Assembly: GCA_041658985.1 (NCBI GenBank)
Contig: JBAZZC010000001.1
Span: forward strand, 1,813-65,812
Source: Minisyncoccota bacterium
Lineage (GTDB): Bacteria > Patescibacteriota > Minisyncoccia > Phycocordibacterales > DATDWN01
Length of the DNA: 64,000 bases
Direction of reading: 5' to 3'
Under the pieces are notes generated by a model. The model saw only the letters and a program-made list of their open reading frames with translations. It searched no databases and had not been told where the DNA came from. Shown in pieces: positions 10,760 through 52,272 of the stretch. Position 1 is the first letter of the stretch. Each line of letters begins with the position of its first letter. Both the position numbers and the translations under genes were made by a program.

Positions 10760-10877
10760 AAAACTTTCAAATTTGGATGAAATTCGACGTGAGAAATTAA
10801 AAAGATGAGGAGCCTTACTTAGTGGTAAGGTGATGAATATTTTTAATTTGGGAACGAGGATTTCGCCAAATTTGGAA
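10760..10877. repeat. family-2 structured palindromic element copy a
   Basis: aaactttcaaatttgg...gagCCTTACttagtgGTAAGGtga...cgccaaatttgg; three nested helices. Confidence 0.7.
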
Positions 10878-10880
10878 GTT

Positions 10881-12152
10881 TTAATATTCCCTAATAGAAA
10901 CCTGTGCATCAATCTTCTTAATCAAATCAATAACTACAGAAACTACGATGAGAAGTGACGTTCCACCAATAGATATCGCTGTGATACCAGTAAGACCGCT
11001 CATGGCCAAAGGAAGAACAGCAATAAAACCCAAAAAGAGTGCCCCAATTAGAGTTAGCCGAGTTAATATTCTCGAGATATGGTCCGATGTTGATTTGCCA
11101 GGTCTTACCCCTGGAATAAATGCTCCGTTTTTTTGAAGATTTGTTGATATTTGGTCTGGGTCAAATGTAACGGCAGTATAAAAATAAGTAAACACAAATA
11201 CCAAAAAGAAATATGCTCCGGCATAAAACCAGCCATTCGCCAAAATATCCAACAAAAAGGTTGACACTGATTGTACTAAGGCGTTACTAGCACCCTGCAA
11301 AAATCTTAGTATCATTTGTGGAAATAGAAGTATTGAAAGGGCAAAGATAATTGGAATAACCCCCGCTTGATTTATTCTAAGTGGTAAATATGTTGATGTT
11401 CCCCCATAAACTTTATTTCCTCGAACTTGTTTTGCATAGGTTACTGGTATTGGTCTTTCCGCTTCGGTGATAATAACCACACCAACAATAACAAGAGCTG
11501 ATATGACAAGAAAGACTAAGTAAAGTGGTAATTGTGAAGCCTCAAAAGAAAAAACCAGTTGACCGATTGTTGCCGGCAAAGATGCAACAATACCAGCAAA
11601 GATGATAAGTGAGACACCATTGCCAATACCATATTCAGAAATAAGTTCACCGACCCACATCAAAAGTACCGACCCAGCTGTTATAACCAAAAGATTCGTA
11701 ACTAATTCAAGGGAAGTAAGATGGGCTAAGATTTGCTGATTTTCTAAGAGTTTTATAAAACTGAAAGCTTGAATAATAGCAAGTGGAATAGAAAGTATTC
11801 TGCTGTACTGAGCAAACTTTCGTCTACCAGCTTCTCCTTCTTCCTGATACATTTCCTTTAATTTGGGAAACATAATAGTTAGAAGTTGCATAATAATTGA
11901 TGATGTGATGTACGGACCAACACCAAGCATCACAATAGAAAGTTGGGCCAACCCACCGCCAGAGAAAAGATTGAGAAGCCCAAAGAATTCATTGCCAGCA
12001 AAAAACTGAGCTAATTTAACATGGTCAACTCCAGCAATAGGGACAGCAGCAAAAACACGAAACAAGACAAGTGCAGAAAGTGTAAAGAATATTCTTTTTC
12101 GTAATATTCTGTCTTGAAAGATAAGGGTGAATTTATTAAAAAGGTCTTTCAT
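10881..12152 (-). CDS. secY: preprotein translocase subunit SecY
   Basis: 10-TM protein with SecY signature regions; follows rplO. Confidence 0.9.
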   Translation of the reverse strand: MKDLFNKFTLIFQDRILRKRIFFTLSALVLFRVFAAVPIAGVDHVKLAQFFAGNEFFGLLNLFSGGGLAQLSIVMLGVGPYITSSIIMQLLTIMFPKLKEMYQEEGEAGRRKFAQYSRILSIPLAIIQAFSFIKLLENQQILAHLTSLELVTNLLVITAGSVLLMWVGELISEYGIGNGVSLIIFAGIVASLPATIGQLVFSFEASQLPLYLVFLVISALVIVGVVIITEAERPIPVTYAKQVRGNKVYGGTSTYLPLRINQAGVIPIIFALSILLFPQMILRFLQGASNALVQSVSTFLLDILANGWFYAGAYFFLVFVFTYFYTAVTFDPDQISTNLQKNGAFIPGVRPGKSTSDHISRILTRLTLIGALFLGFIAVLPLAMSGLTGITAISIGGTSLLIVVSVVIDLIKKIDAQVSIREY

Positions 12153-12156
12153 GGTA

Positions 12157-12594
12157 TTATTTTACCTCACCACCTGCTTTTTCGATAGCTAGTCGAGCTG
12201 AAGCTGAAACCTGACAACCTTTTACTTTTATTTTTCGGCTGAGCTGACCCCCTCCTAAAATTTTTACTCTTGGAAAAACCCCTGAAATTGTCCTGATGAT
12301 TCCTTTTTTTACCAATGTCTGTGGTGAAACAACATCACCATCTTTAAATATGCTAAGTTTTTTTAGGTTTATAACCGTGGGCTTTAGTTCAATGCTTGTG
12401 TTTATGTTTTTTCCGCGACCGCGTAATTTTGGTACCCTTTTAATAAAATCTCTAATTTCTGGTCTCTTCTTGTGACCAGCTCTAGCATTTTGTCCTTTTG
12501 TTCCACGTCCCGATGTTTTTCCACGAGTTCCCCCACGACCGACAAGGCGTGTTTTTGTATTTGGATGTTGTCTTTTTAGGTTATGTGTTTGCAT
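12157..12594 (-). CDS. rplO: 50S ribosomal protein L15
   Basis: Gly/Arg/Lys-rich N-terminus typical of L15; position before secY. Confidence 0.9.
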   Translation of the reverse strand: MQTHNLKRQHPNTKTRLVGRGGTRGKTSGRGTKGQNARAGHKKRPEIRDFIKRVPKLRGRGKNINTSIELKPTVINLKKLSIFKDGDVVSPQTLVKKGIIRTISGVFPRVKILGGGQLSRKIKVKGCQVSASARLAIEKAGGEVK

Positions 12595-12619
12595 GGTTGA
12601 TTTTTAATAACTGAAGTAG

Positions 12620-13243
12620 TTATTTTCTCGGTATTAATTGACTTAATGCTTTTACCGCTGCTTTGGCATTGTTGATTTTATTTTTGCTTCTGGAAAAGAT
12701 TTTGCTACTTACTTCTTTTATTCCAGCAAATTCCAAAACGGTTCTAACAGATGAACCGGCCAAGATTCCTTTACCAGGAGCACGCATAATAAGTACTCTT
12801 GAACTAGAATACTTGGCGCTTACTTCGTGTGGAATAGAGCCGTTTTTTGTCATATTGACTTTAATCATGTTTTTTCTGGCATCTCTAACGGCCTTATCTA
12901 TAGCCACCGGAGTATCTCCAGCTTTTCCAAGACCAACACCAACACGACCCCTTCTGTCCCCAATAACAATACCAACAGAAAAACTGAATCTTCGTCCACC
13001 AGTTACCACTCTCGTCACCCGACGAATACTTATAATCTTTTGGTCAAATTCTGGCTTAACCCGGGCTTCTCTTCTTGGAGAAGGTCTACGAGAATTTTTC
13101 CTAAATTCTTTTGGGGCCTGCGTTGAAACTACATCTTTTTGTAAGACGGTTGGTTCAATTTCTTCTTCAATTTTTATTTCTTCTGGATCCATAATATTTT
13201 TTAAACTAAAATTAAAACTGTAGTCCTCCCTTGCGAGCCCCAT
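12620..13243 (-). CDS. rpsE: 30S ribosomal protein S5 (N-terminally extended; start uncertain, alt 13192)
   Basis: S5 dsRBD and C-terminal domain motifs; directly followed by rplO with no L30 gene between. Confidence 0.85.
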
Positions 13244-13562
13244 CTGCTATCGCCTTAACACTGCCCGTATAAATAAAACCTCCTCTGTCAAACACTACTT
13301 CTTTGATTTTTTTTACCTTAGCTTTCTCTGCAATACTCTCTCCAACAAGCAAAGCTTTTTCCATCATACTTTTGCCTTTTACTTCCCGAGAATGAGCTGA
13401 TGCTAGAGTCTTTGTATTCTCATCATCAATGAGTTGGGCGGAAATGTGCTTGTTTGATTTGTAAACAGACAAACGAGGTTTTTCTTTTGTACCAGAAATC
13501 TTGGCACGAATTCTTGCGTGTCTTCTCGTTCTCTTCTCTAATTTTGCATTTAATGTTTTCAT
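13212..13562 (-). CDS. rplR: 50S ribosomal protein L18
   Basis: L18 motifs, operon position. Confidence 0.9.
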
Positions 13563-13577
13563 ATCGATATATTACCT

Positions 13578-13703
13578 AAACTTTCAAATTTGACCTAGGT
13601 CGCGTATAAAATTTGAAAAATAATGGGAGCCTACCTGAGTGCGTAGGTGACCATTATTTTTCAGATTTTAGACGATGAGATTGGTCATAATTTGTAAGTT
13701 TAG
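13578..13703. repeat. family-2 structured palindromic element copy b
   Basis: aaactttcaaatttg...gaaaaataatgg gagCCTACctgagtgcGTAGGtga ccattatttttc... Confidence 0.7.
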
Positions 13704-14233
13704 GCTGTCTTCTTACCTTGTTTACGCTTAACTACTTCGCCTTCATATCTCATCCCCTTGCCTTTATATGGCTCTGGCTTCTTTAGGGACCTAACTTTTG
13801 CTACAAACTCCCCAACAACCTCCTTATCAATGCCCGTTGTTGTAATAATGTTTTTCTCTGCTGTAACTTTCAGAGTGTTTGGAATCGGAACAATAACTGG
13901 GTGAGAAAAACCAAGGGCTAAAACCAGGGTCTCTCCTTTGACTTCCGATTTATACCCAATACCCTCAAGTATTAATTTCTTGACGTATGGGGTTGTGACA
14001 CCAGCTATCATATTCATGATGTGCGATGCATATGTTCCCCATAATGCTCGTGTTTCTAGTGTTTCAACCTTGGGAACAAGTGTAACTTTATTATCGGCGA
14101 TAGTAACATTAATATCGTCCTTGAAAATCTTTGTAAGTGTTCCAAGTGGGCCTTTAACAGTCAAAATTCCTCCCGAAAGTGAGACTTCAGTTGTTTTTGG
14201 TATTTCTATTATTTTTTTTCCGATTCTACTCAT
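13700..14233 (-). CDS. rplF: 50S ribosomal protein L6
   Basis: MSRIGKKIIEIP start; L6 two-domain pattern. Confidence 0.9.
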   Translation of the reverse strand: MSRIGKKIIEIPKTTEVSLSGGILTVKGPLGTLTKIFKDDINVTIADNKVTLVPKVETLETRALWGTYASHIMNMIAGVTTPYVKKLILEGIGYKSEVKGETLVLALGFSHPVIVPIPNTLKVTAEKNIITTTGIDKEVVGEFVAKVRSLKKPEPYKGKGMRYEGEVVKRKQGKKTA

Positions 14234-14248
14234 GTTATTTTGTGTTTG

Positions 14249-14371
14249 AAAAACTTTCAAATTTGGCCAAGGTCGAGGCAAAACTGGAAACAGAGTCCGA
14301 GCCGTACAATAGTACGGTGAGGATTATGTTTTCAGTTTTAACGAAGAGATTGGTCATAATTTGAATGTTTT
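14249..14371. repeat. family-2 structured palindromic element copy c
   Basis: aaactttcaaatttgg...gagCCGTACaataGTACGGtga...gagattggtcataatttg. Confidence 0.7.
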
Positions 14372-14758
14372 TTACCAGATTTTAAATAGTGCTTCACCTC
14401 CAACTCCTGCCTCTTTCGCCATCTTATCTGTCATAATTCCTTTTGGTGTTGAAAGAATAAGAGCGCCCATACCACCTTTAACCTTATTAATTTCTTTTGA
14501 TTTTTGATAAATTCTTTTTGATGTTTTTGAAACTCTTTCTATGCCATGAATTTTTGGACCGTTTTCATCATAAACAAAAACTACTTCAATAAACTTTGCT
14601 ATTTTCTTTCCTTTCTTTCCAAATGATTTTAGATAACCATCTTTAAAAAGAACATCACTAATTGCAAGTTTTAATTTTGAATATGGAAAAACAACAGATT
14701 CTTTTTTTGATTCTGTCGCATTCTTTATTCTAACTATCATATCTGATATTGGATCCAT
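14372..14758 (-). CDS. rpsH: 30S ribosomal protein S8
   Basis: S8 motifs, operon position. Confidence 0.9.
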   Translation of the reverse strand: MDPISDMIVRIKNATESKKESVVFPYSKLKLAISDVLFKDGYLKSFGKKGKKIAKFIEVVFVYDENGPKIHGIERVSKTSKRIYQKSKEINKVKGGMGALILSTPKGIMTDKMAKEAGVGGEALFKIW

Positions 14759-23878: not shown

Positions 23879-23884
23879 CTAAGA

Positions 23885-24004
23885 AATTTCATAATCTGGA
23901 TGCAGTTCTAGGCGGAAAGTGAAAAAGAATTCGAGCCTGCCTGAGTGCGCAGGTGAGAATAATTTTTTGCTTTCCAACAACGAAATGCGCCAGATTTGGA
24001 ATTT
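23885..24004. repeat. family-2 structured palindromic element copy d
   Basis: aatctggatgcagttctaggcgga...gagCCTGCctgagtgcGCAGGtga...cgaaatgcgccagatttgg. Confidence 0.75.
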
Positions 24005-24007
24005 CTG

Positions 24008-25204
24008 TTAAGCCGTAATCGAGGTTACAACACCAGCACCCACAGTCTTCCCCCCCTCCCTAATAGCAAACCTCTGGTTCTGCTCTAGGGCAACTGGAGC
24101 AACTAATTTAATCTTGAATGTAACCGTATCTCCTGGCATGACCATTTCCACACCTTCATTTAGAGTTACATCTCCAGTAACATCTGTCGTTCTGATGTAA
24201 AACTGTGGTTTGTAACCAGAGAAGAATGGTGTGTGTCGTCCACCTTCCTCTTTCTTTAGAACATAAACTTCAGCTGTAAATTCTGTATGAGGAGTAACAG
24301 TACCTGGTTTTGCAAGAACTTGACCTCGATGAATTTCTTCTTTCTTTGCACCTCGAAGTAAGATTCCAGCATTATCCCCTGCAATACCCTCTTTAAGTGA
24401 TTTGTTGAACATTTCGATACCTGTAACTGTATATTTCTGTGTATCTTTCAAGCCAATACATTCAATTTCTTCACCAACTTTAACAACCCCCCTTTCAATT
24501 CTTCCAGTAACCACCGTTCCTCGGCCCTCAATTGAGAAAATATCTTCAACTGGCATAAGAAATGGTTTTTCTAGGTCTCTTTGTGGAATTGGGAAATATG
24601 TATCTAGGGCATTAGCTAATTCTAATATCTTCATTGCCCATTCGTCTGTATTGTCCTTTGATTCAAGAGCTTTAAGGCCAGAACCCCTAATAACAGGAGC
24701 ACCCGCACCATCAAAACCCTGTTTTGTAAGGAGTTCTCGAACTTCCTCCTCAACTAAATCAATAAGTTCCTTGTCAGGCACCATATCGCATTTATTTAGG
24801 AAAACAATAAGCTTCGGCACACCGACTTGTTTTGCCAAAAGCACGTGCTCTCTTGTTTGAGGCATCACGCCATCTGTTGCAGCAACTACCAATATCGCGC
24901 CATCCATTTGGGCGGCACCGGTAATCATGTTTTTAATATAGTCAGCGTGTCCAGGAGCATCCACGTGTGCATAGTGTCTCTGTGGTGTTTCGTATTCTGA
25001 GTGGTGAAGAGCAATGGTTATTCCTCTTGCTTTTTCTTCAGGAGCACTATCAATTTTGTCCACTCCTTCAACTCTAGCTGAATATCCTGCGCCTGCGCGA
25101 GAAAGCACAGCAAGAATTGCTGCTGTTAATGTTGTCTTCCCGTGGTCAACGTGGCCAACTGTACCGACGTTTACATGGGGCTTTGATCTATCAAAATCTG
25201 CCAT
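24008..25204 (-). CDS. tuf: elongation factor Tu
   Basis: [22 protein letters not shown]; start at [14 protein letters not shown]. Confidence 0.95.
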
Positions 25205-25460
25205 TGTATTTATGTGTGTTATCTCACAGCGCTTCCAAATTTGGCGAACTTCTGCGTTGGACTTGTAAAATGTTCGTCGTCGTATGTCTATACGCCTCCT
25301 CACCTTTTACTTCGTCCGCCTTGAATTTCATCCAAATTTTAAAGCGTGTAATTAAACAAAGATTAAAACTAATAATGTTTTAGAAATTCCAACAACTCAA
25401 TGTTCGAGAAATCTGAATTCTGGGAACTTCCAAAAATGGTCGCGTGAAGCGACACTGAGT

Positions 25461-28930: not shown

Positions 28931-29084
28931 TTACTACGCTACTCATCCTGCATAATTTTACTTTATACAAAAAATGTAAAACTCTAACGGGACAGGTCGT
29001 TTTTACAACGTTGATGCAATGAAAAAACTCACTAAGAAGTGAGAATTTTCTGTATTAATAGAATAAAGAATCCTGGAGGATTTT

Positions 29085-29185
29085 TTTTCGAGTTCAAGGC
29101 GAAATGAAAAAATGCGAGGAGCCTTACTGTCGTAAGGTGACGAGGATTTTTGAAATTTCAACGCAGAAATCGGACAAAAAGACCC
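29085..29185. repeat. family-2 structured palindromic element copy e
   Basis: gagCCTTACtgtcGTAAGGtga core with A-/T-rich flanking helix. Confidence 0.6.
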
Positions 29186-29188
29186 AGG

Positions 29189-31330
29189 CTATTTTCTAGA
29201 CTCAATAATTGTCAAAGCGACGTTTGGTGGCACCACTTCATAATGATCAAACTCCATCATAACCGACCCTCTTCCTTGTGTCATTGAACGAATATCAGTT
29301 GTGTATCCAAACATTTCAGACAAAGGAACCTTAGCGTGAATTACTCGGAGCATTCCTCTCTCCTCCATTCCTTCTATCTGCCCTCGTTTACCTGAAAGTG
29401 AGCCTGTGATATCTCCCATAAATTGTTCTGGCATGATAGCATCAACTTTCATAATAGGTTCAAGTAAGACAGGTCTGGCTCTTTTGGCTGCATCTTGGAA
29501 AGCTTGAGAGGCTGCAATCTTGTAAGCAATTTCAGATGAGTCAACATCATGATAAGAACCGAATGTAAGTTCGCAGGAAATATTTACCATTTTGTATCCA
29601 GCAACAATTCCTCTATCCATTGCCTCATGAACACCTTTTTCACAGGCAGGAATAAATTCTTGTGGGATAACGCCCCCTTTGATTGAGTCAATAAATTCAA
29701 AGTCTTCATATCGTTTAACATTCTTAGGAATTTTTGCTCCCTCTTCAATTTTCTCAAGAGGTTTGATTGTGAGTTTTACGTGACCATACTGACCTTTTCC
29801 ACCAGTCTGTTTGATATATTTGTGTTCCGCCTCGGCTGTCCCAAGAATTGTCTCTCTGTATGCTACTTGTGGTTTACCAACATTTACCTCAACACCAAAT
29901 TCTCGTTTCATGCGGTCAACCATAATTTCTAGATGTAGCTCTCCCATACCAGAGACAATCGTCTCGGCTGTTTCGGAATTTGATGACACAATAAACGTTG
30001 GGTCCTCGTCAGAAAGTTTTTTGAGGGCCATACCCATTTTTTCCTGGTCAGCTTTTGTTTTTGGTTCAATACGAAGTGAGACGACAGGAGCAACGAATTT
30101 AATTGGGTCAAGAAGAATTGGTTGGTCCTCGTCACAAAGTGTGTGAGATGTTTTTGCAGACTTTAATCCCACCGCTGCTGCGATTTCTCCGGCAAAAACT
30201 TTTTTTACTTCCTCACGTTTGTCAGCCTGAAGTCGCACAATACGACCCAACCTTTCTTTCTCACCTGTGGTTGAGTTATAAATATATGTTCCAGACTCAA
30301 TTGTCCCAGAATAGACACGAAAGAAAGTTAGCTGTCCAACGAATGGGTCGTTTTGAAGTTTGAAAGCAAGAGCAGAAAAAGGTTCTTCATCAGAAGGTTT
30401 CCTAAATATTTCATCACCTGTTTTTGGGTCTAAACCTCTGACGGGAGGGATGTCTAGTGGAGACGGGAGATATTCTACAACTGCGTCTAGAACAAGCTGG
30501 ATACCTTTGTTTTTCAAAGCAGAACCCGCCATGACAGGAACAATTTTTACAGCAAGACAGGCCTTACGAAGAGTCTTTTTTAGCTCTTCTATTGTTGGTT
30601 CCTTACCATCTAGAAACATTTGCATTTGCTCATCATCTTGTTCAACAATTTTTTCTATAAGCTCTGCGCGATATTTTTTTGCTTCATCCAAATATTCGGC
30701 GGGAATTTCTGACTCACGAATATCCATACCCATATTTCCTTCAAAGTGATAAGCCTTCATTTTCAAAAGGTCAATCACCCCCTCAAATTTATCCTCTAGA
30801 CCAATAGGAATTTGTAGGCGAACTGCGTTTTTTGTCAGTCTGTCTAAAATGGAGGCAAAAGAACGCTCAAAAGATGCACCCGTTCTATCAAGTTTGTTTA
30901 TCAAACAAATTCTTGGCACAGCGCCATCATCAGCATATCTCCAGTTTGTTTCTGATTGTGGTTCAACTCCGGCAACTCCGTCAAAAACCACAACCGCACC
31001 GTCAAGAACACGAAGTGAACGTTTTACCTCAGCTGTGAAATCAATGTGTCCGGGAGTATCAATAATATTGAAACGATAGGTGGGTTTGTCTCCCTTTGGC
31101 ATGTAGGTAGGATTCCAGAAACAAGTGATGGCTGCAGCAGTAATGGTAATACCTCTTTCACGCTCTTGTTCCATCCAGTCTGTCACCGTCTCCCCCTCGT
31201 GCACTTCACCAATCTTGTGAGTCATTCCTGTATAGAAAAGCACACGCTCTGATGTGGTTGTTTTACCAGCGTCAATGTGCGCTATTATACCAAAATTACG
31301 AACCTTATCTAGGGAATAGTCTCTATTCAT
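29189..31330 (-). CDS. fusA: elongation factor G
   Basis: [23 protein letters not shown] and full-length EF-G domains. Confidence 0.95.
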
Positions 31331-34338: not shown

Positions 34339-34575
34339 AGTTATGATTATACACCTTTCTAAATATTTGTTTCAATCTTAGTGTGATTGTGTAAAAATCT
34401 TAATTCTAAGTATTATATAAAATAAAAAGTAAACTTGTAGACGAAGATTTTTGTGAGGATTTTTGTTGAAGTTCGAAGCTCGCAGGTTTTTTCTGTGACC
34501 AAAACGTACAACAGTACGTTGCGTGGAACAGATAAAAACCGAGAGCAAAGAAATTCGGCAAAAAGACCACAAAAA

Positions 34576-35055
34576 CTACCAAGCAAAATGGGCAAAGGCC
34601 TTGTTTGACTCCGCCATTTTATGCGTATCTTCTCTCTTCTTCACTGCCTTACCTTCATTTTTTGAAGCTAGTATAATTTCGTCAGCTAAGCGAGATGCCA
34701 TAGGAGCACCTTTGCCTGAGCGAGCTGAATCAATAATCCATTTCATTGCGAGAAACGAACGTCTTTCTGGTCGAACTTCTCGAGGAATTTGGTAGTTAGC
34801 ACCTCCGACTCGACGAGAGCGAACTTCTGTAAGAGGGCCTGTATTTTTTAATGCTGTATCAAAAACTTCCATTACATCCACTGTCGTAGCTGTGCCTAGT
34901 TTCTTAATAATCTGTTCAAATGCATCATAAACAATTTTTCGAGCTGTCGCTTTTTGTCCACGAATCATTATGTAATTGATAAATTTACCAACTTTCTCAG
35001 AATCATATTCGTGATCTTTACCTACTATATTTCTGTTTGTTATTTTTCTTCGCAT
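34576..35055 (-). CDS. rpsG: 30S ribosomal protein S7
   Basis: S7 motifs across length. Confidence 0.95.
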   Translation of the reverse strand: MRRKITNRNIVGKDHEYDSEKVGKFINYIMIRGQKATARKIVYDAFEQIIKKLGTATTVDVMEVFDTALKNTGPLTEVRSRRVGGANYQIPREVRPERRSFLAMKWIIDSARSGKGAPMASRLADEIILASKNEGKAVKKREDTHKMAESNKAFAHFAW

Positions 35056-44845: not shown

Positions 44846-44891
44846 AGTTGCTATTTTAACACAAAATCAAATTCTGGGGATTTTTAGGACT

Positions 44892-45000
44892 TTTAGATTT
44901 GGATGCAATTCGCGAAAGATGAGAAAAATGATTTGAGCTTGCCTGAGTGCGCAAGTGAAAATCATTTTTTGAAATCTGACAAAGAAGTGCGCCAAATATA
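44892..45000. repeat. family-2 structured palindromic element copy f
   Basis: atttggatgcaattcgcgaaa...gagCTTGCctgagtgcGCAAGtga...gtgcgccaaatat; abuts stop codon of upstream gene. Confidence 0.75.
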
Positions 45001-45006
45001 AAAGTC

Positions 45007-46800
45007 CTATTCTACTTCCTCCCAAGAAGAGATTGACCACCCTCCACTAGGCCCACTTGAAAAATTCACGTCAGCTAAGCCACTTTCGTAATTTATAATA
45101 GCTCCACCAGAAGCTTTTATAAGATATGCCGTAGCGGCCTTCACACCAGAACCACCATTTAAGGTCATCGTTCCTCTTTGGGCACTTAAAATGACAGCCC
45201 CAGCACCTCCAGAGAGAGTCAGTGCATCAACCCCACCACAAGATGAGTCGATTGGACAATTGCTTGTGGTAAGAACCATTAAATAACTCCCAGCTTGACC
45301 CGAACCAGATAAATTTCCTCCACCCGCTAGAGATACTATATTATCAGAGAGAAGCACTCCACTTTTTGTTCCATATGATGCGGCAAGTTTTATTTTTCCT
45401 CCCCCACTTAAAGTAATAGTGCCTTGAACCCAGATTGTTCCTGAGAGGGTAAGAGTTCCACCACCATTTACAACAAGATTACCTGTGATTTTTGTCGGCC
45501 CCACTGTCGCTCCTGCCCAACCAACAGTATAGTTACCAGTTATCGTTCCACCAGCGGAGGCCTCACTTTTCCAGTCCGCTATGTTGCTGTCAGAGATTGG
45601 GTAACCGGTAGGTGATGGGTCTGGCCTTGATGTGTCGCATGATTTGTTGTTGTCATCTCCAGTCTGGCAATAAAGATTACCCGCGACTTGTGCACCAGTT
45701 ACATTGTGGGCGTAAGCATCACCAACACCACCACTACCAATAACCACTGCACCAACATAAGTTCCACCACCGATAGTTGAGGTTAATCCACCCAAATAAA
45801 TCCGAAAGTATCCATCTAGTCCAACTGGGTTGGTATTGTTCCAGGTTCCAGCATATTTTCCTAGTTTTGCTGAACCGTTGGTGTATGATGAATTTCCTCC
45901 AATGGTGTAATAGTTGGTGGAACTTTGGGTGCTATTGTCTAACACTAACCAATAGGTCGTCCCAGGAATAAGTTCTGGATTATCGGGAAACACAACATCA
46001 ACCCAACCATAGTTTATAGACACGAGTGATGCCGAAAGCGTTCCTTGTGTTGTAAATAAATTAGTTGTACTTGGATTTCCAGAAGAATTGGTAACCATTC
46101 TCACTGTAATATCTGATGGGCTACCTGTCTTTTTTATATAAAGACTGACTTTGTTTATTGGGCCCTGATTTGTAACTTGAAAACTCTGGGCTAAATCTTG
46201 GGTGGTTGATGTATCTCTAAATTTAATATTATTTGTTGGTGGTGTTGGAGTATCGTTTAATTGGTCTGAACTTAATGCAGAACTATTTGCCGCAATGGCC
46301 GAACCAGTAATAGTTACACCATTTGTGGCAATAATATCTCCATTCGAATACACATTGCCGTTTACCCTAGACCCACCACTTAAATTAAAACCACCGGTTC
46401 CAGTTTGAATACCATAATTGAAGGCTGTGCCAACCCCAGTTGTTACACTCGATTGCATCTTCCTGATTATTCCAGCTCTATCAGAGACAGCATTAATAGT
46501 CTTTCCTTCTGATGTGGAGATAACATTAATCGTCGCCGTATAACCGTTTAGAACAACAGTGTCCCCGGAACTAACTGTTTTCCCAGTTTTTAGACGATAC
46601 ACAGCATCTTCGAGCGCTCCTTCAGCTAAATAATAACTTTCTTTTGAAAAAACCACCTCCTTCGAAATAGTAGCTTGTTTTAAAATTGGGCTAATAATTC
46701 CAAACACAATAGTCATAGACGTAAACAAGAAAAATATCACTGCGATAAGCATTGCTGCACCTTTATTATATTTATTTTTTTTGTCTTTTTTATTACTCAT
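45007..46800 (-). CDS. large Gly/Thr/Ser-rich exported protein (597 aa) in pilus cluster; possible pilus-associated adhesin
   Basis: N-terminal hydrophobic anchor, beta-rich low-complexity body; not a canonical prepilin (no E at +5). Confidence 0.5.
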   Translation of the reverse strand: MSNKKDKKNKYNKGAAMLIAVIFFLFTSMTIVFGIISPILKQATISKEVVFSKESYYLAEGALEDAVYRLKTGKTVSSGDTVVLNGYTATINVISTSEGKTINAVSDRAGIIRKMQSSVTTGVGTAFNYGIQTGTGGFNLSGGSRVNGNVYSNGDIIATNGVTITGSAIAANSSALSSDQLNDTPTPPTNNIKFRDTSTTQDLAQSFQVTNQGPINKVSLYIKKTGSPSDITVRMVTNSSGNPSTTNLFTTQGTLSASLVSINYGWVDVVFPDNPELIPGTTYWLVLDNSTQSSTNYYTIGGNSSYTNGSAKLGKYAGTWNNTNPVGLDGYFRIYLGGLTSTIGGGTYVGAVVIGSGGVGDAYAHNVTGAQVAGNLYCQTGDDNNKSCDTSRPDPSPTGYPISDSNIADWKSEASAGGTITGNYTVGWAGATVGPTKITGNLVVNGGGTLTLSGTIWVQGTITLSGGGKIKLAASYGTKSGVLLSDNIVSLAGGGNLSGSGQAGSYLMVLTTSNCPIDSSCGGVDALTLSGGAGAVILSAQRGTMTLNGGSGVKAATAYLIKASGGAIINYESGLADVNFSSGPSGGWSISSWEEVE

Positions 46801-46804
46801 GTTC

Positions 46805-47320: not shown

Positions 47321-47782
47321 TTAATTGTAGAGATTTGTTATATAAGTTGATATTGCTCTGGTTGTTGTACCATGCCCCTGCCAATATTCAACGGTTGTTG
47401 TTATCTTTTTTGTGTTTGGATCATATGTGCCACTTGCTGAAATCTCATCCCCAGCATCTCGTTTAACATCAGTAATATTTATTTTTCTCAAAAAAATATT
47501 ATCAATGTACTGAGGCGTGGTCGTAGTAGCCCAATCATTACTAAAAGATAAATAATATGTAGTCGAGGTTGATAAGGCGGAAATGTTTGTCCAACTTTTG
47601 TCACGAAAATAAGTCATTATCTCAAGTCCCTCCTCTAAAATATAGCTGGCACTGACATTTTGTTGGTTAGCAAAAGCATATTGGACATAGGTACTAAATA
47701 CCGAGCTGACAGCAAGAATGCCAACTGAAATTATGGCTGAACCAATTAATATCTCCACTAATGCCATCCCTTTGTTATTCAT
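47321..47782 (-). CDS. type IV pilin/pseudopilin-like protein
   Basis: KGMALVEILIGSAII N-terminal motif. Confidence 0.65.
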   Translation of the reverse strand: MNNKGMALVEILIGSAIISVGILAVSSVFSTYVQYAFANQQNVSASYILEEGLEIMTYFRDKSWTNISALSTSTTYYLSFSNDWATTTTPQYIDNIFLRKINITDVKRDAGDEISASGTYDPNTKKITTTVEYWQGHGTTTRAISTYITNLYN

Positions 47783-47783
47783 T

Positions 47784-48248
47784 TTATTGATATTCCATTA
47801 AACCCGTTTTATATATTGTAACAGTTTTCGATTTTGATATCCCAGGAGAAGACACAACCACCGTGCCATAGTTAACGGTCTCACCTGTTAGACGATCAAA
47901 AACCACATCACTTCCACTTGGCGTAAGACTAATCGTCAAAATTGTGTCCGTAGAACTCAAAATAAAATCTTGGTTGGTTGGACTACCCGCAATGTAACTA
48001 GTCCCAACGAACAAGGTAACCTTAGTCGAAGAAAAGTGAACACCATAACTAGAGGAGTTTTTTGATGTCAGAGTTTGATTGCGTGCCTGTCTTAAAACTT
48101 CAACGACAGTGTCTGTATCCATATTAAGTGCCTGGTTTGTTTTAAAAGTTACAAATGTGTTAAAAATTATCATAGAGACGACTGACATAATAGCTACTAC
48201 GACAAGCAATTCGACTAAGGTAAACCCATGTTTAAATGATAATTTCAT
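47784..48248 (-). CDS. type IV major pilin-like protein
   Basis: KHGFTLVELLVVVAIMS canonical prepilin leader and hydrophobic helix. Confidence 0.8.
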   Translation of the reverse strand: MKLSFKHGFTLVELLVVVAIMSVVSMIIFNTFVTFKTNQALNMDTDTVVEVLRQARNQTLTSKNSSSYGVHFSSTKVTLFVGTSYIAGSPTNQDFILSSTDTILTISLTPSGSDVVFDRLTGETVNYGTVVVSSPGISKSKTVTIYKTGLMEYQ

Positions 48249-48290
48249 TTTTTGAAAATTAAAAACCAGAAACTGAAAATCTAACTAATA

Positions 48291-49507
48291 CTATTTAATA
48301 CTGTCTCCTATTGAATATATAGGACTAATAATCGAGATAGCAAAAATTCCAACCGCCACACCTATAAAAACCATCAGCACCGGTTCAATAACCGACGACA
48401 TATCTTTGGTTTTTTGGTCTATTTCTTCTTCATAAAACAAAGCAACGTTTAAAAGCATATCCCCCGTCTTACCTGTTTCCTCACCCACTGAAACCATTTC
48501 GGAAACAAAGATTGGATAAAGGTCGTGATGTGCAGAAAAAACCGATGACATTGTCGTGCCTTTTTGAACTGAAATCTGAATTTCATTTAAAACTTCTTTG
48601 TAGTATGAATTCTGCAACACATCTTTCGTTACCCCAGAGGCCACAACAATATCTACCCCAGAGGAAAGCAATGATGATAGAGTTCTAGCTGTGCGAGCGG
48701 CATTAATCTGTCTGGTAACACCACCAATTATTGGTAACTTTAACAAAACAAAATCTAGAAATCTTTGACCTCTCTTTGTTCTAATTGCAAAAATAAAAGC
48801 CAAGACTAACAAAATAAAACCAAATAAAACAAAAATAAAGTATGAAACAAGAAAATTGCTTGTACCAATAATCATCCGTGTAGAAAAGGGAAGGTCCAAA
48901 CCCAACCCTGTAAATGTGGCGGTAAGAGTCGGCACCATATAAATCATCATGAGCACACCAATCGCTACCATTAAAACAAGGATAATAACTGGGTACATTA
49001 AAGCCCCCCTTATTTTTCTGTTTAACTGATAAGTTTTTTCCATCTGCAAAGCGACATTTTGTAAAGCAGAGGAGAGATTTCCAGATTCCTCCCCCGCTCT
49101 AACCATAGAGGTAAAAAGTGAAGAGAATACTTTTGGGTAAGCTTTCATAGAATCACTAAGTGTGGTTCCACGACTTAAGGATGCGTTAAATCGTTTAAAA
49201 CTTTTTTGAAAAGATTTTTTGCTTCTCTTTCCATTATTGAAAGAGCTCTAGTTATGGGCAACCCAGCATCTATCATTTTCGATAAATTTCTAGCAAAAAT
49301 AATTTTGTCGTGTGTTTTGATGTTATCAAGAAATGGCAAAAAATTTGAAATATTAAATGTTGATTTATTTTGTGCTTCTTCGGCAAAGACAACTGAGTTA
49401 CCGTCAGTTTTAATTAAGTGGTACAAAGCAAATTTATCTTTTGCTTCCATTGTCCCTTCAGTTTGCTTACCTTCTTTATTTACTGTTTTGTAATGAAATA
49501 GTGGCAT
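48291..49507 (-). pseudogene. pilC: pilC (GspF-family platform protein) split by stop and +1 frame change near 49148-49177
   Basis: N-terminal GspF part 49175-49507 and C-terminal T2SSF repeats 48291-49148 in different frames. Confidence 0.55.
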
Positions 49508-49529
49508 GGGTTTGAATGATTCAAAATCT

Positions 49530-49640
49530 CTTTCTCGTCATATCTCTCAGAGAGACACGCATAAATTTTTGCTAAAATTTTGCTTGAGTTCGCACCGTCG
49601 TGCTCACTAGTCTCTCTTCGAGATATGAGTCAACGAATTT
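49530..49640. repeat. type-B inverted-repeat element (copy 2, inverted)
   Basis: reverse complement matches 41045-41150. Confidence 0.6.
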
Positions 49641-49736
49641 TTCAAGTCATACTTTATATAATTGTATCAAAAATAAATTTTATTTACATAGAACTTGTGT
49701 ATAAAAACTTTTATAAACATAAAGCCCCTCACCAAT

Positions 49737-49765
49737 TTGCCAAATTGGTGAGGGACTAAGTGTTA
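49737..49765 (-). terminator. perfect 14-bp-stem palindrome ccctcaccaatttg c caaattggtgaggg after gene D
   Basis: exact palindrome followed by T-rich tract on minus strand. Confidence 0.6.
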
Positions 49766-49787
49766 GAGAGTCAAGGGGCCATGGGGA

Positions 49788-50450
49788 CTAGGCCACCACG
49801 GGGGCGGTCAGTTGCGGGAAGACGAAGCGATGACGATCCTCGCCGTCCCAGACGTGGTCGAGCGACAGCCGGTGGGCGCGGACGTGGAGACCAAAGGGGC
49901 AGACGCGCACGCTCGCAACGAAGAACTCGTTGTCCTTCTTCACGAGGAAGAAGGTTCCGTAGCCATCCATTCTCAACCAGTCCTGGTGGGTCTCGCAGAA
50001 TGAGATGACCTGACCCTGGGTCATGACCAGATTGTCCAGAGGGACGCCGACATTGGCGTAAATGTCAACGAACTTGCCATTGCGGACGAGCTCGTGAACT
50101 TCCACGTCCGTGTTGGGGGTTGCCACTCCTTCCACGTCGAGACCGTAGTTGACGAAGTCGGGGTCGATGTAACCCCGAAACACCGTCTTGGCCTTGGCGA
50201 TAGTCCGCTTGCCCTTGCAGGCAGAGATGGTCAAAGTCTCCCCGCCCGAGACGAGACGGAGGTAGAAAGCGGACTTCTTGGTCGGCTTCACCACCTTCGG
50301 CATGATGTCGGCGTCGCCGTCGAGGTATGCCTTGATCATCCGAAGACGACCACCCGACCCAATGAGATTTACTTGTTCGGGGGTTAAGCCATCCTCTTCA
50401 AATCTGTCCGACAACCACTTCATCTGGTCAATCGTGTAGAGTAAGGACAT
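49788..50450 (-). CDS. GC-rich orphan protein D (unknown function)
   Basis: GC-rich ORF; AGAAAGGG SD then ATG at 50450; consensus promoter 50599-50627 and structured leader upstream. Confidence 0.6.
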   Translation of the reverse strand: MSLLYTIDQMKWLSDRFEEDGLTPEQVNLIGSGGRLRMIKAYLDGDADIMPKVVKPTKKSAFYLRLVSGGETLTISACKGKRTIAKAKTVFRGYIDPDFVNYGLDVEGVATPNTDVEVHELVRNGKFVDIYANVGVPLDNLVMTQGQVISFCETHQDWLRMDGYGTFFLVKKDNEFFVASVRVCPFGLHVRAHRLSLDHVWDGEDRHRFVFPQLTAPVVA

Positions 50451-50598
50451 CGTCCTACCCTTTCTGGCACATCGTGCCAATGCTGGCTCAGCGGGATGCT
50501 TTGCCACAGCAGAAAAGGTCATTGTTTTAGGGCACTTTCTGCTATGGCAAATCTTATTTTTGACTCTATAACACTTTTAAAGAACTGCTTAACTTATT

Positions 50599-50627
50599 AT
50601 ATTATACACCCCTAAACCACTTTAGTC
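50599..50627 (-). promoter_or_regulatory. consensus sigma70 promoter TTGACT-17-TATAAT for gene D with upstream A/T UP-like tract
   Basis: perfect -10, 5/6 -35, 17-bp spacer; paralogous copy upstream of gene E. Confidence 0.6.
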
Positions 50628-51056
50628 AAGGTGTGAGATTTACACAAAAACTTTCAAATTTAGGCAAAACCTGAGGCGTAAGCCTCGGTTTGCGCTCGTC
50701 GTTCCAACGGTTGAACGTGGCGAAATGTACAGAATACCATCCAAACCACCTCCCCTAGAAATTCTTTTGAAGATTTCGGGGTTGAATATAATTTCGCATC
50801 ATAATGCGTCAGTATTCTGCACCAAGTATCTTCATTTTTTTGAAGTGTCTACATAAGTCCTCCGTCTGAAACCGTGGTCGCAGACGCTCTCAACTTATCC
50901 CAACAAGTGAGGAGCGTGTAAGAATTTATTCTTACGACGTCCGAGTGCCGTCGAGACAAAGGGTACAACCCTTTATGGATACTGGATTCGGCCGCCAGAA
51001 ACCTTAATCTCCAGCAAGATTCACCTACTACCATATTTAGTATAACAAATTTTTTT

Positions 51057-51193
51057 ATCCGCACACCAACTTTGCCATCGTTTTTATGTTCTGTCTTGAT
51101 AGGTTATAAGATAAAAAAAATTATGTATAAATATTAAAATATTATTGATTTGTTTTTGTAAAAACAGAGCTATGGCAAAGTTGGTGTGCGGAT
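51057..51193. repeat. family-1 inverted-repeat element copy 5
   Basis: ATCCGCACACcaactttgccatcg...ctatggcaaagttggtGTGTGCGGAT. Confidence 0.75.
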
Positions 51194-51249
51194 ATATCAA
51201 AAAACCGGCCACAGAAACTGTGCCGGGGTGCAGGGCTGAGGTCAAAGGT

Positions 51250-51906
51250 TCAAGGAGAACCGAGACCCCAGCCCTTAGAACTTACTTGCGGACGCCAGCG
51301 AACCACCAGTAGGCGTCCCAGGCGTAGTCGTGGCGGTTTGACGTGCACGCGGCGCCCGCCGTGCCAACGGCGGAACGTGGCGAAACACCACTTGCCGTTC
51401 TCATCCTTCCAGTGCGTACCGTGAAGATGTGTGTCGGCGAAGGTGGGGTCCGCCTCGTTGACAGCAGCGACGGAGTACGGATCAGCGGGCTTGAGACCCG
51501 CAAACTCGTACTCCTTCTCCAAATCGTCGTCACTGATGACGCCGTTTTTGTAGGCCTCCGGACGAGGCTTGAAGAAAACGACCTCCGTCGGTCCGCCCGT
51601 ACCTTTCGGCATGGTCGCGACGACGCCGGCGTCAACGTACTGTTTCCGGCCCGTCGCCTTGAGCGTCGCTTCCGGAGTGCGCGTGTTGTCCACGTCGACC
51701 AGTCGAATGATGAGGTTGGCCAACGATTCGACCAGCTCGCGGAACACCGCGAACATCCTCATGCCGAGATTGTCCACCCCCAGCGCCTGCTGGGCGCCAT
51801 CCTTCGGAGTTTCCGCCTGATGCTTGCGCATGGCAGCACGGAGTTGGTCCACAACCGTGTCAATCTGTCCGTCGGTCATCGGAGATGCGGTCATGGTCTG
51901 TGCCAT
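51250..51906 (-). CDS. GC-rich orphan protein E (unknown function; 3' end/frame uncertain)
   Basis: GC-rich ORF with AAAGGA SD; promoter 52027-52055; hairpin terminator about 51200-51232 followed by family-1 element. Confidence 0.55.
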   Translation of the reverse strand: MAQTMTASPMTDGQIDTVVDQLRAAMRKHQAETPKDGAQQALGVDNLGMRMFAVFRELVESLANLIIRLVDVDNTRTPEATLKATGRKQYVDAGVVATMPKGTGGPTEVVFFKPRPEAYKNGVISDDDLEKEYEFAGLKPADPYSVAAVNEADPTFADTHLHGTHWKDENGKWCFATFRRWHGGRRVHVKPPRLRLGRLLVVRWRPQVSSKGWGLGSP

Positions 51907-52026
51907 GGCGTCATCCTTTCGTGACTAGGCAACTGTATTGTCGCCATAGTTTTTAATTTACAAGATGTTTATGAACTAAAAACTATGGCGACTTGCAAGT
52001 AAGTATCAAAGAACTTAACTTTCTGT

Positions 52027-52055
52027 ATTATACACCCTTAATCAGTTTCCGTCAA
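52027..52055 (-). promoter_or_regulatory. consensus sigma70 promoter TTGACG-17-TATAAT for gene E
   Basis: paralog of D promoter module (about 85% identity over about 100 bp). Confidence 0.6.
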
Positions 52056-52163
52056 GGCGTGACATTTGACACAAAAACTTTCAAATTTAGGCAAAACCCG
52101 AGGCGTAGGCCTCAGTTTGTGCTCGTAGGATTTTTGCTCAAGGTTGTGTATTTGGGGGCTTTC

Positions 52164-52272
52164 ATATTTGGATGCAGTTCGAGGCGGACGAAAAAAATAA
52201 CCCGAGCCTTACTTGTCGTAAGGTGAGGGCTATTTTTTAAAGTCCAACAAAGAAATGCGCCAAATATGAAAG
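52164..52272. repeat. family-2 structured palindromic element copy g
   Basis: catatttggatgcagttcgaggcgga...gagCCTTACttgtcGTAAGGtga...aatgcgccaaatatg; abuts pilB stop codon. Confidence 0.75.

Follow-up and report, generated by a model that had tools for sequence, protein, structure and literature searches.

We show here that a previously uncatalogued family of hairpin-forming repeats, about 130 bases per copy, is present in the window, the whole stretch of 64,000 nucleotides that was analysed. To the reading of these repeats as an old, low-activity, dispersed intergenic hairpin repeat of the REP/MITE/ERIC-like kind we give about even chances. The original prediction described seven structured copies; all of them are present at their coordinates, fold, align with a mean column identity of 64% and score 77-132 bits against a covariance model (CM) made from the same seven. 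A strict core pattern has six matches versus a chance expectation of 0.00. The covariance model adds an inverted copy (25225-25351, 82-94 bits) and a diverged one (34454-34577, 29 bits), so that the window holds nine copies instead of seven. The proposal that all copies are co-oriented does not strictly hold, as the inverted copy is on the minus strand. The copies are:

Copy a, 10757..10885, + strand, after secY (stop codon 10881-10883); CM 115-117 bits, pattern match; A5..T5 core module 10799-10844, inner hairpin 10810-10833.
Copy b, 13574..13705, + strand, after rplF (stop 13700-13702); CM 94-113 bits; core 13616-13661; rplR ATG 13 nt further on.
Copy c, 14247..14374, + strand, after rpsH (stop 14372-14374); CM 110-111 bits; inner hairpin 14299-14320; rplF ATG 13 nt further on.
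Copy d, 23879..24009, + strand, after tuf (stop 24008-24010); CM 124-132 bits; core 23922-23967, inner hairpin 23933-23956.
Copy h, 25225..25351, - strand, inverted, about 20 nt upstream of the tuf start; CM 82.5 and 94.2 bits.
Copy e, 29066..29194, + strand, after fusA (stop 29189-29191); CM 78-85 bits; core 29108-29151, outer arms variant.
Copy i, 34454..34577, + strand, after rpsG (stop 34576-34578); CM 29.3 bits, E 1.6e-4.
Copy f, 44883..45011, + strand, after the gene of a 597-aa protein that adjoins pilin genes (stop 45007-45009); CM 117-120 bits; core 44924-44969.
Copy g, 52152..52279, + strand, after the gene of a pilB-type ATPase (T2SSE by Pfam; stop 52276-52278); CM 116-122 bits; core 52193-52237.

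The predicted location directly 3' of genes was borne out, and Pfam confirms the flanking genes (SecY, S10, L18, the PilB-type ATPase, S8, L6, EF-Tu and EF-G, and S7 upstream of copy i). Copy h has intact outer arms and, as read from the sequence, a degenerate GAGCC/GGTGA core. Copy i is diverged, with outer arms of the e type, a centre that carries T6 5' and A5 3', and no GAGCC/GGTGA; its fold reaches -54.5 kcal/mol (z -7.9). Copy f is followed by a promoter-like TTGATT..TGTGTTAAAAT and then by tpiA (TIM by Pfam). The junctions of copies f and g had been described as identical, but one base differs, GAATAG being followed by GACTTTT in f and by GGACTTTC in g.

A wider search with the covariance model, as the prediction had suggested, recovers about 130 more copies outside the window, in more than 60 Patescibacteria MAGs and metagenome contigs. 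Its distribution is restricted to one clade of Patescibacteria with tiny genomes (Paceibacteria / Zambryskibacteria-like), in which dispersed imperfect palindromes of about 125-135 bp occur at a density of roughly one copy per 5-8 kb. The suggested comparison with Rfam gave no match to the element, even with E up to 10. Among the 123 copies analysed, 98 were seeded by a search pattern demanding A5, GAGC, GTGA and T5, and the conservation of these motifs is therefore partly ascertainment. Pattern-independent sets were also analysed, 21 copies for covariation and 25 copies not matching the pattern for the strand test.

As had been described, three helices are nested in the element and its inner part forms a GAGCC-stem-loop-stem-GGTGA hairpin. 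With all 123 copies, 88.5% of cells pair, changes on both sides are seen in 42 of 44 pairs and the covariation score is 0.512, compared to 0.158 for shuffled and at most 0.128 for slid controls; the 21 pattern-independent copies give 89.5%, 38 of 44 pairs and 0.541 versus 0.185. The claim that the stems covary and that specific non-Watson-Crick features are conserved is supported. An invariant tandem G.A/A.G and a G.U adjoin the inner stem on the + (model) strand, and A68, G69 and G89 are invariant also in the 25 copies not matching the pattern. Other parts of the description need revision. The outer helix is present, but extends about 4 nt beyond the limits given for it and includes the stop codon. 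The A-tract/T-tract helix, thought to covary, does not: the A5/T5 tracts are nearly invariant in polarity. The conserved segments are partly paired rather than unpaired, and across the family conservation is highest at GAG...GGUGA, in the A and U tracts, and at UUCG and AC.A.G. The consensus ends are AAC...GTT.

The fold belongs to the + strand of the window, antisense to the flanking genes. On this strand the mismatches comprise 427 G-U versus 101 A-C, the others being mostly purine-purine, and the 25 copies outside the search pattern show 75 G-U versus 18 A-C and 96 purine-purine versus 14 pyrimidine-pyrimidine. The mean MFE is -49.8 kcal/mol on the model strand versus -36.7 kcal/mol on the opposite one, and not one of the 123 copies deviates from this order of stability. 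If an RNA acts within the operon transcript, it would have to use the weaker-folding complement. Because G.U and G.A are kept on the non-mRNA strand, in the outer helix too, the data imply that a folded + strand molecule, either RNA or single-stranded DNA, is under selection at its full length, which speaks against the REP/MITE/ERIC-like reading.

An ORF of at least 60 codons ends within 9 nt of one element end in 82 of 123 copies, compared to 12 of 123 for the other end, with offsets of the stop codon peaking at 0-1 and 3-5 nt. The palindrome thus starts flush with the stop codon of the upstream gene, which is often paired into the helix, and complementarity of the next 4 flanking nucleotides is 0.88, 0.78, 0.61 and 0.48, versus 0.53 to 0.32 expected. 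The 84 upstream proteins fall into 88 Pfam families of unrelated housekeeping functions, so the element is not a gene-specific regulator. The neighbours are ordinary genes (FtsZ, L10, L7/L12, FtsA, YbeY and MsrA/B); neither a transposase nor another partner protein was seen near the copies, another point against the REP/MITE/ERIC-like reading.

Sites are polymorphic between genomes, and the stop codon position is identical in filled and empty orthologous sites. At the site of copy b, the window, L125, L127, L132 and L136 have an element, whereas L122, L123, L126, L128 and L131 have none, and the rplF site is held by three different subtypes. That of copy c has a copy in none of 80 rplF loci, that of copy d is also occupied in L021, L024 and L088, with differing inner stems, and that of copy e in L007, L011 and L070. 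Empty orthologous spacers had been named as one half of a refutation; they are indeed frequent in close relatives, so no single copy is indispensable, but the covariation persists when copies are added. Near-identical copies sit after unrelated genes in other genomes; copy a, for example, is 86-90% identical to copies after mreB or a SIMPL-like gene. Of the pairs with an identity of 80% or more, 82 are at non-orthologous and 7 at orthologous sites, and for 117 of 123 copies the nearest neighbour lies in another genome. Median identity is 0.59 within and 0.58 between genomes, indicating an old family, and no near-identical copies inside one genome were found among the 123, unlike in active MITEs or REPINs. 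Comparison of flanks revealed no clear duplication of the target site; 29 of 122 copies have symmetric TA..TA flanks versus 14.5 expected, which helix extension would explain equally well.

Between co-directional genes, 63 copies are antisense versus 11 sense, and rplF loci sampled irrespective of the element give 13-15 versus 3. The centre (A5, a hairpin of 12-13 kcal/mol, U5) has the geometry of an intrinsic terminator on the folded strand, while the complementary strand mostly does not: a U-tract at most 2 nt from the stem end is found in 103 of 123 copies on the model strand (-12.9 kcal/mol) versus 48 of 123 on the mRNA strand (-8.2 kcal/mol). The apparent ordinary terminators of the organism are short hairpins of 5-6 bp. 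Selection against polar termination may cause the orientation bias, but is not the whole explanation, since either orientation should be tolerable before a strong promoter and yet antisense prevails there by about 23:2. In three related genomes an intact sense-oriented copy lies 7 nt upstream of the rpsZ start, so that essential genes are necessarily transcribed through the "terminator" side, again an argument against the REP/MITE/ERIC-like reading.

We consider it unlikely that the element acts in cis in the host mRNA, as a stop-codon hairpin that loops out about 130 nt and serves as 3'-end protector, RNase III-type processing site or device that holds the stop codon near the next start codon and so preserves translational coupling, with pyrimidine-rich internal loops (UCA/CUC) as recognition sites. 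Such roles are in line with the stop codon being flush in about two thirds of copies and base-paired into the helix, with the mostly highly expressed housekeeping genes upstream, with the strong promoter that often follows, and with the rplF-rplR distance, 2-7 nt at empty sites versus an ATG 13-25 nt past the hairpin base at filled ones. The mRNA strand also still folds, at the mean of -36.7 kcal/mol. However, where the + strand has U.G, U-A or C-G, C.A mismatches mostly stand in the mRNA, which is the less stable strand in all 123 copies; close relatives dispense with the sites, and about 15-20% of copies are opposite-oriented or have no stop codon alongside. An independently expressed structured or protein-binding RNA from the + strand would explain why fold, G.U pairs and invariant tandem G.A are all on that strand, and would suit the strong covariation and the sense copy that three genomes have in the rpsZ leader, where the RNA must be made. 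It is nevertheless very improbable: promoter-like sites aim into the element in 6 of 117 copies, close to control levels, versus 23 of 117 pointing away towards the next gene, and no promoter for a separate + strand RNA was found among the 117 copies scored. For copies b and c the next gene, which is on the opposite strand, is only 13 nt away, and the middle U-tract would end the transcript before a 3' arm whose outer helix covaries. A density of one copy per 5-8 kb, with every copy different, does not resemble that of an RNA gene, and Rfam has no match. Of the two classes named in the prediction, functional structured RNA or REP-like element, the REP-like one fits best.

It is quite unlikely that the folded + strand is a single-stranded DNA site, selected for mobility as the substrate of an HUH/Y1 enzyme (as in REP-RAYT and IS200/IS605) or of an attC-type tyrosine recombinase. 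DNA hairpins recognised by proteins typically carry strand-specific mismatches of the G.T and tandem G.A kinds; a clear target duplication is lacking, the flanking TARA covaries with TYTA at the far end, as expected of element-target pairing, several subtypes are inserted at precisely one junction, orthologous copies have swapped the palindrome centre as a block, and the AAC...GTT ends fit as well. Against it, no HUH/Y1 or tyrosine recombinase gene was seen near any copy, and the folded strand is by GC skew the leading-strand template, whereas elements of the IS200/IS605 type use that of the lagging strand. Copies of the window family stand between core genes rather than between cassettes beside an integrase, bursts of identical copies are absent, and the conserved A5/U5 polarity points to transcription rather than recombination. 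That very polarity, the A5-hairpin-U5 core and the location after genes would suit ordinary bidirectional intrinsic terminators, alike by appearance only. We hardly credit this: homology extends through about 130 nt and takes in arms that a terminator can do without, the spc operon continues with its next cistron 13 nt after copies b and c, the mRNA-strand core has terminator geometry in only 48 of the 123 copies, and the organism's apparent ordinary terminators are the short 5-6 bp hairpins. The earlier view that the element is not a plain terminator is supported.

As a REP/MITE/ERIC-like repeat, the family would gain and lose copies at intercistronic junctions, those of the essential spc and str operons included, each copy being placed exactly between the stop codon and whatever came after. 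Mobility would then be the likely source of the copies. Compensatory change maintains the hairpin on one strand only, and surviving copies are mostly oriented so that the RNA polymerase of the genes reads the weak strand. The operon transcript could pass through and form the looser hairpin, starting at the stop codon, while transcription from the opposite direction would meet the terminator-like side. A benefit may lie in a barrier to incoming or antisense transcription, or in an mRNA 3' hairpin.

Several known systems share parts of this description. Bidirectional intrinsic terminators share the A-tract, hairpin and U-tract, a geometry found in the 103 copies on the folded strand, but the core of the window family lies inside an outer helix that is conserved and measures about 45 nt on each side, mostly aims against the adjoining gene and occurs within essential operons. 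Integron attC sites lie immediately 3' of ORFs as imperfect palindromes of 60-140 nt, with structure rather than sequence conserved, a functional fold antisense to the ORFs and AAC...GTT ends, all of which resemble the window family. However, the family lacks a RYYYAAC/GTTRRRY core, neither an integrase nor a cassette array was seen, its copies separate core ribosomal and translation genes, and its A5/U5 tracts are conserved. Correia/NEMIS elements of Neisseria and other MITEs (100-150 bp, long terminal inverted repeats, gene-adjoining, co-transcribed) are similar in size, inverted repeats and position, and presence/absence polymorphism at orthologous sites is observed for the window family. 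Correia elements are flanked by a TA duplication and occur in many near-identical copies, whereas the window family has no established duplication, a within-genome identity of only about 59%, and complementarity with covariation over its whole length. REP elements are extragenic hairpins just past genes, with strand-specific hairpin mismatches and long-term residence, and the REP/BIME/REPIN likeness lies in these features; for E. coli REPs, transcript effects that depend on stop-codon closeness have been reported. Their 20-40 nt units with a conserved 5' tetranucleotide, doublets and large near-identical populations around a RAYT gene were not found in the window family. ERIC/IRU elements of Enterobacteria are imperfect palindromes of about 127 bp that form one long hairpin, intergenic in transcribed regions and in both orientations, with old fixed-site copies, few of them identical, and compensatory change that maintains the structure. 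The window family differs in host phylum, in being flush with stop codons, in the structure on the usually non-mRNA strand and in the terminator-like A5/U5 centre. A sequence relationship is not expected; shared with ERIC are the similar size, a single long imperfect hairpin, intergenic position in both orientations, old copies and compensatory change.

The repeat described here is an imperfect palindrome of about 130 nt that lies flush with stop codons. All seven copies of the original prediction align over about 125 nt and follow the genes named there (copy a follows secY, b rplF, c rpsH, d tuf, e fusA, f a gene for a 597-aa protein and g a pilB-type gene), with Pfam giving SecY, S10, L18 and a PilB-type ATPase and also S8, L6, EF-Tu and EF-G. 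A strict core pattern, A5-N6-GAGC-N13-18-GTGA-N5-AT5, is matched by six of the seven, compared to 0.00 expected from shuffles. A covariance model, which had been proposed as a check, was built from the seven copies and scores them at 77-132 bits. The copy number of seven was too low, however; all seven are present, and covariance models add two more, giving nine in total. The eighth copy (h, 25225-25351, upstream of tuf) lies on the opposite strand and scores 82.5 bits with the model from seven copies. The ninth (i, 34454-34577) stands directly after rpsG, its upstream S7 being confirmed by Pfam, reaches 29 bits with a second model built from 123 copies and folds at -54.5 kcal/mol (z -7.9). 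Copy i has kept e-type outer arms; its centre has T6 on the 5' and A5 on the 3' side, so that its tract polarity is the reverse of that in the remaining family, and the GAGCC/GGTGA motif is absent. In the str region of the window (25352-34453) the order is rpsL, rpsG, copy i, an M78/IrrE-like peptidase with four small ORFs and fusA, followed by copy e, a 1023-aa protein without Pfam match together with DUF5663, the inverted copy h, tuf, copy d and rpsJ; the classical str operon is broken here at two points. Since fusA is followed by this pair, the 1023-aa protein and DUF5663, in L070 and L007 as well (two loci from other Patescibacteria), the insertion is old, and the idea that copies e and h are the ends of a composite transposon carrying the pair was rejected.

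In the alignment of 123 copies from the window and from other genomes, 88.5% of the cells are paired and two-sided changes occur in 42 of the 44 pairs, with a covariation score of 0.512 compared to 0.158 after shuffling and at most 0.128 with slid partners. The corresponding values for a 21-copy alignment that is independent of the search pattern are 89.5%, 38 of 44 pairs, 0.541, 0.185 and at most 0.11. Of the 123 copies, 98 were forced by the pattern to have A5, GAGC, GTGA and T5, and the remaining 25, which the pattern did not seed, were therefore examined separately; A68, G69 and G89 do not vary among them, and conservation of the A and T tracts is 80-92%. The inner stem is bordered by 5'-GA...GA-3', a tandem sheared G.A/A.G beside a near-invariant G.U, and a second tandem G.A takes the place of two Watson-Crick pairs of the middle helix in about one third of the copies. 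Variety is large, with 96 distinct inner hairpins and 103 distinct arm pairs of the middle helix among the 123 copies. Pairing is 92.6% in the outer helix, which measures 18-22 bp and reaches 4 nt into the flanks, and the repeat forms one full-length palindrome, not two unlike end hairpins. Inspection of the aligned copies by eye for a small ORF downstream of the Shine-Dalgarno-like AGGTGA revealed no conserved start codon or frame. In two of the comparison loci, copies stand in tandem a few bases apart (L045, 6808-6937 and 6944-7061; L100, 7256-7383 and 7392-7460), one copy of the two being partial.

The comparison with Rfam that the original prediction had called for gave zero matches: Rfam 15 returned nothing at the gathering score over the whole window, and nothing for either strand of copy d at E up to 10. 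We conclude that the repeat is a genuine structured repeat family outside Rfam. The core pattern matched at least 116 stretches in a species-representative genome collection, and nearly all listed matches are MAGs labelled Patescibacteria, Parcubacteria, Zambryski-, Kaiser- or Campbellbacteria or Paceibacterota. About 115 copies were confirmed by the model among the matches listed, in at least 62 assemblies besides the genome of the window; the closest gene identities among them are about 82% at the DNA level for fusA and 92% at the protein level for EF-Tu, the latter to a Zambryskibacteria MAG. In an element-independent sample of 80 metagenome loci, seeded with the L6 protein of the window, we found 16-18 copies in 11-12 loci, almost all at an L6 identity of at least 70%, so the family is confined to a clade. 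Two pattern matches in viral contigs were not upheld by the covariance model, and these contigs gave no sign of phage carriage. A search of the literature on structured RNA, palindromic repeats, terminators and MITEs of Patescibacteria or the CPR yielded no account of the family.

The strand that folds is the plus strand of the window, antisense to the flanking genes. On this strand 427 G-U pairs are found compared to 101 A-C combinations (which are G-U on the opposite strand), and the other mismatches are overwhelmingly purine-purine. RNAalifold gives -35.4 kcal/mol for the plus strand and -19.6 kcal/mol for the other, and the minimum free energy per copy is -49.8 compared to -36.7 kcal/mol, the plus strand being the more stable in 123 of 123 copies. 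The folded strand is rich in G and in purines (A 0.345, G 0.231, T 0.283, C 0.141), the reverse of the skew of the surrounding plus strand. Wobble pairs of the folded strand occur in the outer helix too, and hence selection seems to act on a full-length plus-strand molecule. A misfit is that a plus-strand transcript stopping at the core U-tract would be without the 3' arm.

Read in mRNA orientation, the repeat starts at the stop codon. An ORF of at least 60 codons ends within 9 nt of the stop-side end in 82 of the 123 copies, and within 9 nt of the other end in 12, with offsets peaking at 0-1 and 3-5 nt. Complementarity over about 4 flanking nucleotides is 0.88, 0.78, 0.61 and 0.48, compared to 0.53 to 0.32 expected, and the flank consensus is TARA|...|TYTA with R and Y covarying; as the palindrome extends into the flanks in this way, the stop codon often lies within the basal helix. 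Stop codons at the repeat are TAA in 51, TAG in 28 and TGA in 5 cases (background 472, 197 and 103). The genes upstream are unrelated housekeeping genes (88 Pfam families in 84 proteins), among them those for EF-G, EF-Tu, LepA, GyrA, NusG, SecY, MreB, DnaB, PilB, L2, L11 and S7. Of the copies that separate co-directional genes, 63 have the folded strand antisense and 11 have it sense; 24 further copies lie between convergent and 10 between divergent genes, and the element-independent loci of the spc operon give 13-15 antisense compared to 3 sense. The 3' end of the folded strand faces a gene border in every context, tail or head, and where a convergent pair holds two elements, each is antisense to its own gene. 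Within the spc operon the next cistron starts 13 nt beyond copies b and c. An intact sense copy stands 7 nt before the start of rpsZ in L124, L129 and L132, with no space for a promoter, which shows that essential genes are read through the strongly folding side. At ftsZ of L056, another comparison locus, a sense copy lies about 20 nt upstream and has TGTAATTTT, similar to an extended -10 box, behind it; an antisense copy is flush with the stop codon of the gene. GC skew in the window simply tracks gene direction, and replication and gene direction are thus not separable as causes of the orientation bias. L124 also encodes a 170-aa ORF without Pfam match between rplE and rpsZ (3398-3910), and carries, just upstream of its sense copy, TTGACA-17-TAGTAT together with a short hairpin that has a T-run (3983-4047).

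Copies come and go. The site between rplB and rpsS is filled in the comparison locus L088 and empty in the window, with the rplB stop codon at the identical position. Between rplF and rplR a copy is present in five genomes and absent in at least six, the empty sites having a stop-start gap of 2-7 nt in six relatives and of 17-36 nt in three more. All copies at this site begin immediately after TAA and the filled sites hold 13-25 nt extra from the palindrome to the ATG; the copies belong to different subtypes, one shared by the window, L125 and L127 and two others in L132 and L136. The secY, rpsZ-rpsH and rpsH-rplF sites are also polymorphic. Copies that are 85-91% identical follow unrelated genes in different genomes: copy a (secY) resembles copies behind mreB and behind a SIMPL-like gene, copy b (rplF) one after rpsC, and pairs of at least 80% identity are non-orthologous in 82 cases and orthologous in 7. 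The nearest neighbour of 117 of the 123 copies lies in a different genome, and median identity is 0.59 within and 0.58 between genomes (maximum 0.70 among eight window copies); there has been no recent burst. Orthologous copies can have near-identical arms and central 45-50 nt that differ as a block, as after fusA (L011 compared to L070) and after rplF (L127 compared to the window and L125). The spacers have peculiarities of their own. In L121 (about 5531-5600) two small GC-rich hairpins, GCCAATCCAAAGGATTGGC and GACCCCAAAGGGGTT, stand between rplF and rplR where the repeat would be; these are followed by AACTTCCAAATT, which adjoins the rplR ATG, matches the beginning of the repeat over 12 nt and may be the remnant of a lost copy. 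The repeat-free rplB-rpsS spacer of the window (19629-19685) holds a simple hairpin, AAGGCTTC-TCCTGCG-GAAGCCTT, without U-tract; in L088 the repeat is followed by a GC hairpin and then by a promoter, TTGACA..TGTGATTAAAT, which lies midway in the S10 operon.

Signs of mobility were sought at the ends and in the neighbourhood, among them a target-site duplication (TA) like that of Correia-type MITEs. The excess of direct repeats at the flanks is small, and only 9 of 122 palindromes end in TA. Symmetric TA..TA flanks occur in 29 of 122 copies compared to 14.5 +- 3.1 expected, an excess equally explained by helix extension because TA is self-complementary. The 84 upstream proteins and ten genes flanked by copies, from genome pieces of 8-10 kb, were all housekeeping and included no transposase, and no tnpA or tnpB gene was seen. 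Arm pairs enclosing a gene-sized insert were absent from the window and from 116 loci, and solo arm-like matches were few. Two such matches in the window were rejected as solo arms, as both are part of a separate terminator-promoter cassette, about 110 nt long, that occurs twice on the minus strand (50560-50760 and 51990-52190). This cassette consists of a short terminator-like hairpin (GAGGCYTACGCCTC and GGTTTTG), then CCTAAATTTGAAAGTTTTTG, then a strong promoter, TTGAC..17-18 nt..TGTATAAT; AAATTTGAAAGTT in it is similar to the repeat's 3' arm, and one cassette lies upstream of each of two ORFs without Pfam match (49788-50522 and 51250-51906). Several start codons in the window have no recognisable Shine-Dalgarno sequence. 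The stretch from 38859 to 54027 is a competence and type IV pilus neighbourhood:

38859-40343, ComEC
41156-42922, RecJ
46805-48248, pilin-like genes with N-terminal methylation motif
52276-54027, PilB-type ATPase

We see an even chance that the family is a low-activity mobile hairpin repeat with a one-sided terminator-like core, kept mainly in the orientation that lets operons be read through it. Such a repeat may benefit its host by blocking incoming transcription or by forming a hairpin in the mRNA. The rival readings, in order of rank, are a host element at the mRNA level, a single-stranded-DNA recombination site, an independent RNA and a plain terminator, which would be built on the core. 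When the segment between the A- and U-tracts was folded separately for each strand, the folded strand gave a mean of -12.9 kcal/mol with about 11 pairs and the mRNA strand -8.2 kcal/mol with about 8, and intrinsic-terminator geometry, with the stem ending no more than 2 nt from the U-tract, was found in 103 of 123 copies on the former and in 48 on the latter, where the stem stops 9 nt short in 61 copies. The A5:U5 pairs almost never flip, which fits the need for a U-run 3' of the hairpin; the A- and T-runs are of similar length (5.0 and 5.3). A terminator consensus scan did not call the elements, and copies b and c in the spc operon and the L124 copy before rpsZ do not stand at the end of a transcription unit, as an intrinsic terminator would. 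Only 23 of 117 copies are followed by a strong promoter, these spacer sites being aimed at the next gene and many a perfect TTGACA-17-TATAAT. Selection against polar terminators alone is insufficient to explain the orientation bias, because promoter-followed sites should then be unbiased and are still at about 23:2. An element of the host acting at the mRNA level would agree with the stop-flush position, and has against it the weaker mRNA-strand fold. An independent RNA would suit the full-length plus-strand structure, but an own promoter for it is unsupported, sites aimed into the element (6 of 117) being at about control levels. For RNAs ending at the U-tract, an antiterminator or alternative fold was considered and rejected, none being conserved on either strand.

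We regard it as rather unlikely, if worth considering, that the antisense-strand fold is itself the functional form, either as outward-facing gene-border insulators or as a single-stranded-DNA recombination site for a hairpin-specific enzyme. This reading is supported by the 3' end facing the gene border and by the elements of convergent pairs being antisense to their own genes. As insulators, the elements would have their terminator side away from the protected gene and would halt RNA polymerases coming from downstream or from upstream read-through, having spread as mobile hairpins across streamlined CPR genomes. As single-stranded-DNA sites, they would be inserted by a putative enzyme exactly at stop-codon junctions, the element end pairing with the stop codon.

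Patescibacteria have among the smallest and most streamlined bacterial genomes, and this clade still retains about one structured 130-bp repeat per 5-8 kb (nine in the 64 kb of the window), even within str, S10 and spc, the most conserved operons known. A puzzle lies in the strands: selection maintains the structure on one of them, and the stop codon that positions the repeat is on the other. An answer would inform either on how CPR bacteria control antisense transcription or on the mobility of single-stranded DNA in them. The repeat offers a marker for gene ends and lineage in uncultured Patescibacteria, its covariance models can be used to mask or annotate copies in CPR MAGs, and as a natural experiment its sites can show how an insertion does no harm between essential genes that are translationally coupled.

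Among known elements, REP/REPIN sequences flank a cognate RAYT (Y1/HUH) gene and form a large near-identical population within a genome; such a population is not found here. MITEs of the Tc1/IS630 type, such as Correia, share with the repeat terminal inverted repeats and orthologous sites that are filled in some genomes and empty in others; neither the window nor 116 loci contained an autonomous insertion sequence with matching ends. Integron attC sites have RYYYAAC/GTTRRRY core sites and form an array beside an integrase gene, whereas the ends of the repeat read TARA-AACTT...AAGTT-TYTA, with AAC/GTT present and RYYY/RRRY absent, and its neighbours are core genes. Elements of the IS200/IS605 type have distinct subterminal hairpins at their two ends and insert 3' of a fixed tetranucleotide without duplication; the repeat is one palindrome, and its upstream flank consensus T-A-R-A covaries with the far end. 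Its resemblance to enterobacterial ERIC sequences is one of form. In its behaviour the repeat is like an old element of the REP/MITE/ERIC type, being dispersed and palindromic, occupying polymorphic sites and occurring with the same subtypes at unrelated loci, but unlike these families it is flush with stop codons, conserves its structure, specific non-canonical pairs included, on the strand that is usually not the mRNA and has a centre with terminator geometry on the folded strand only.
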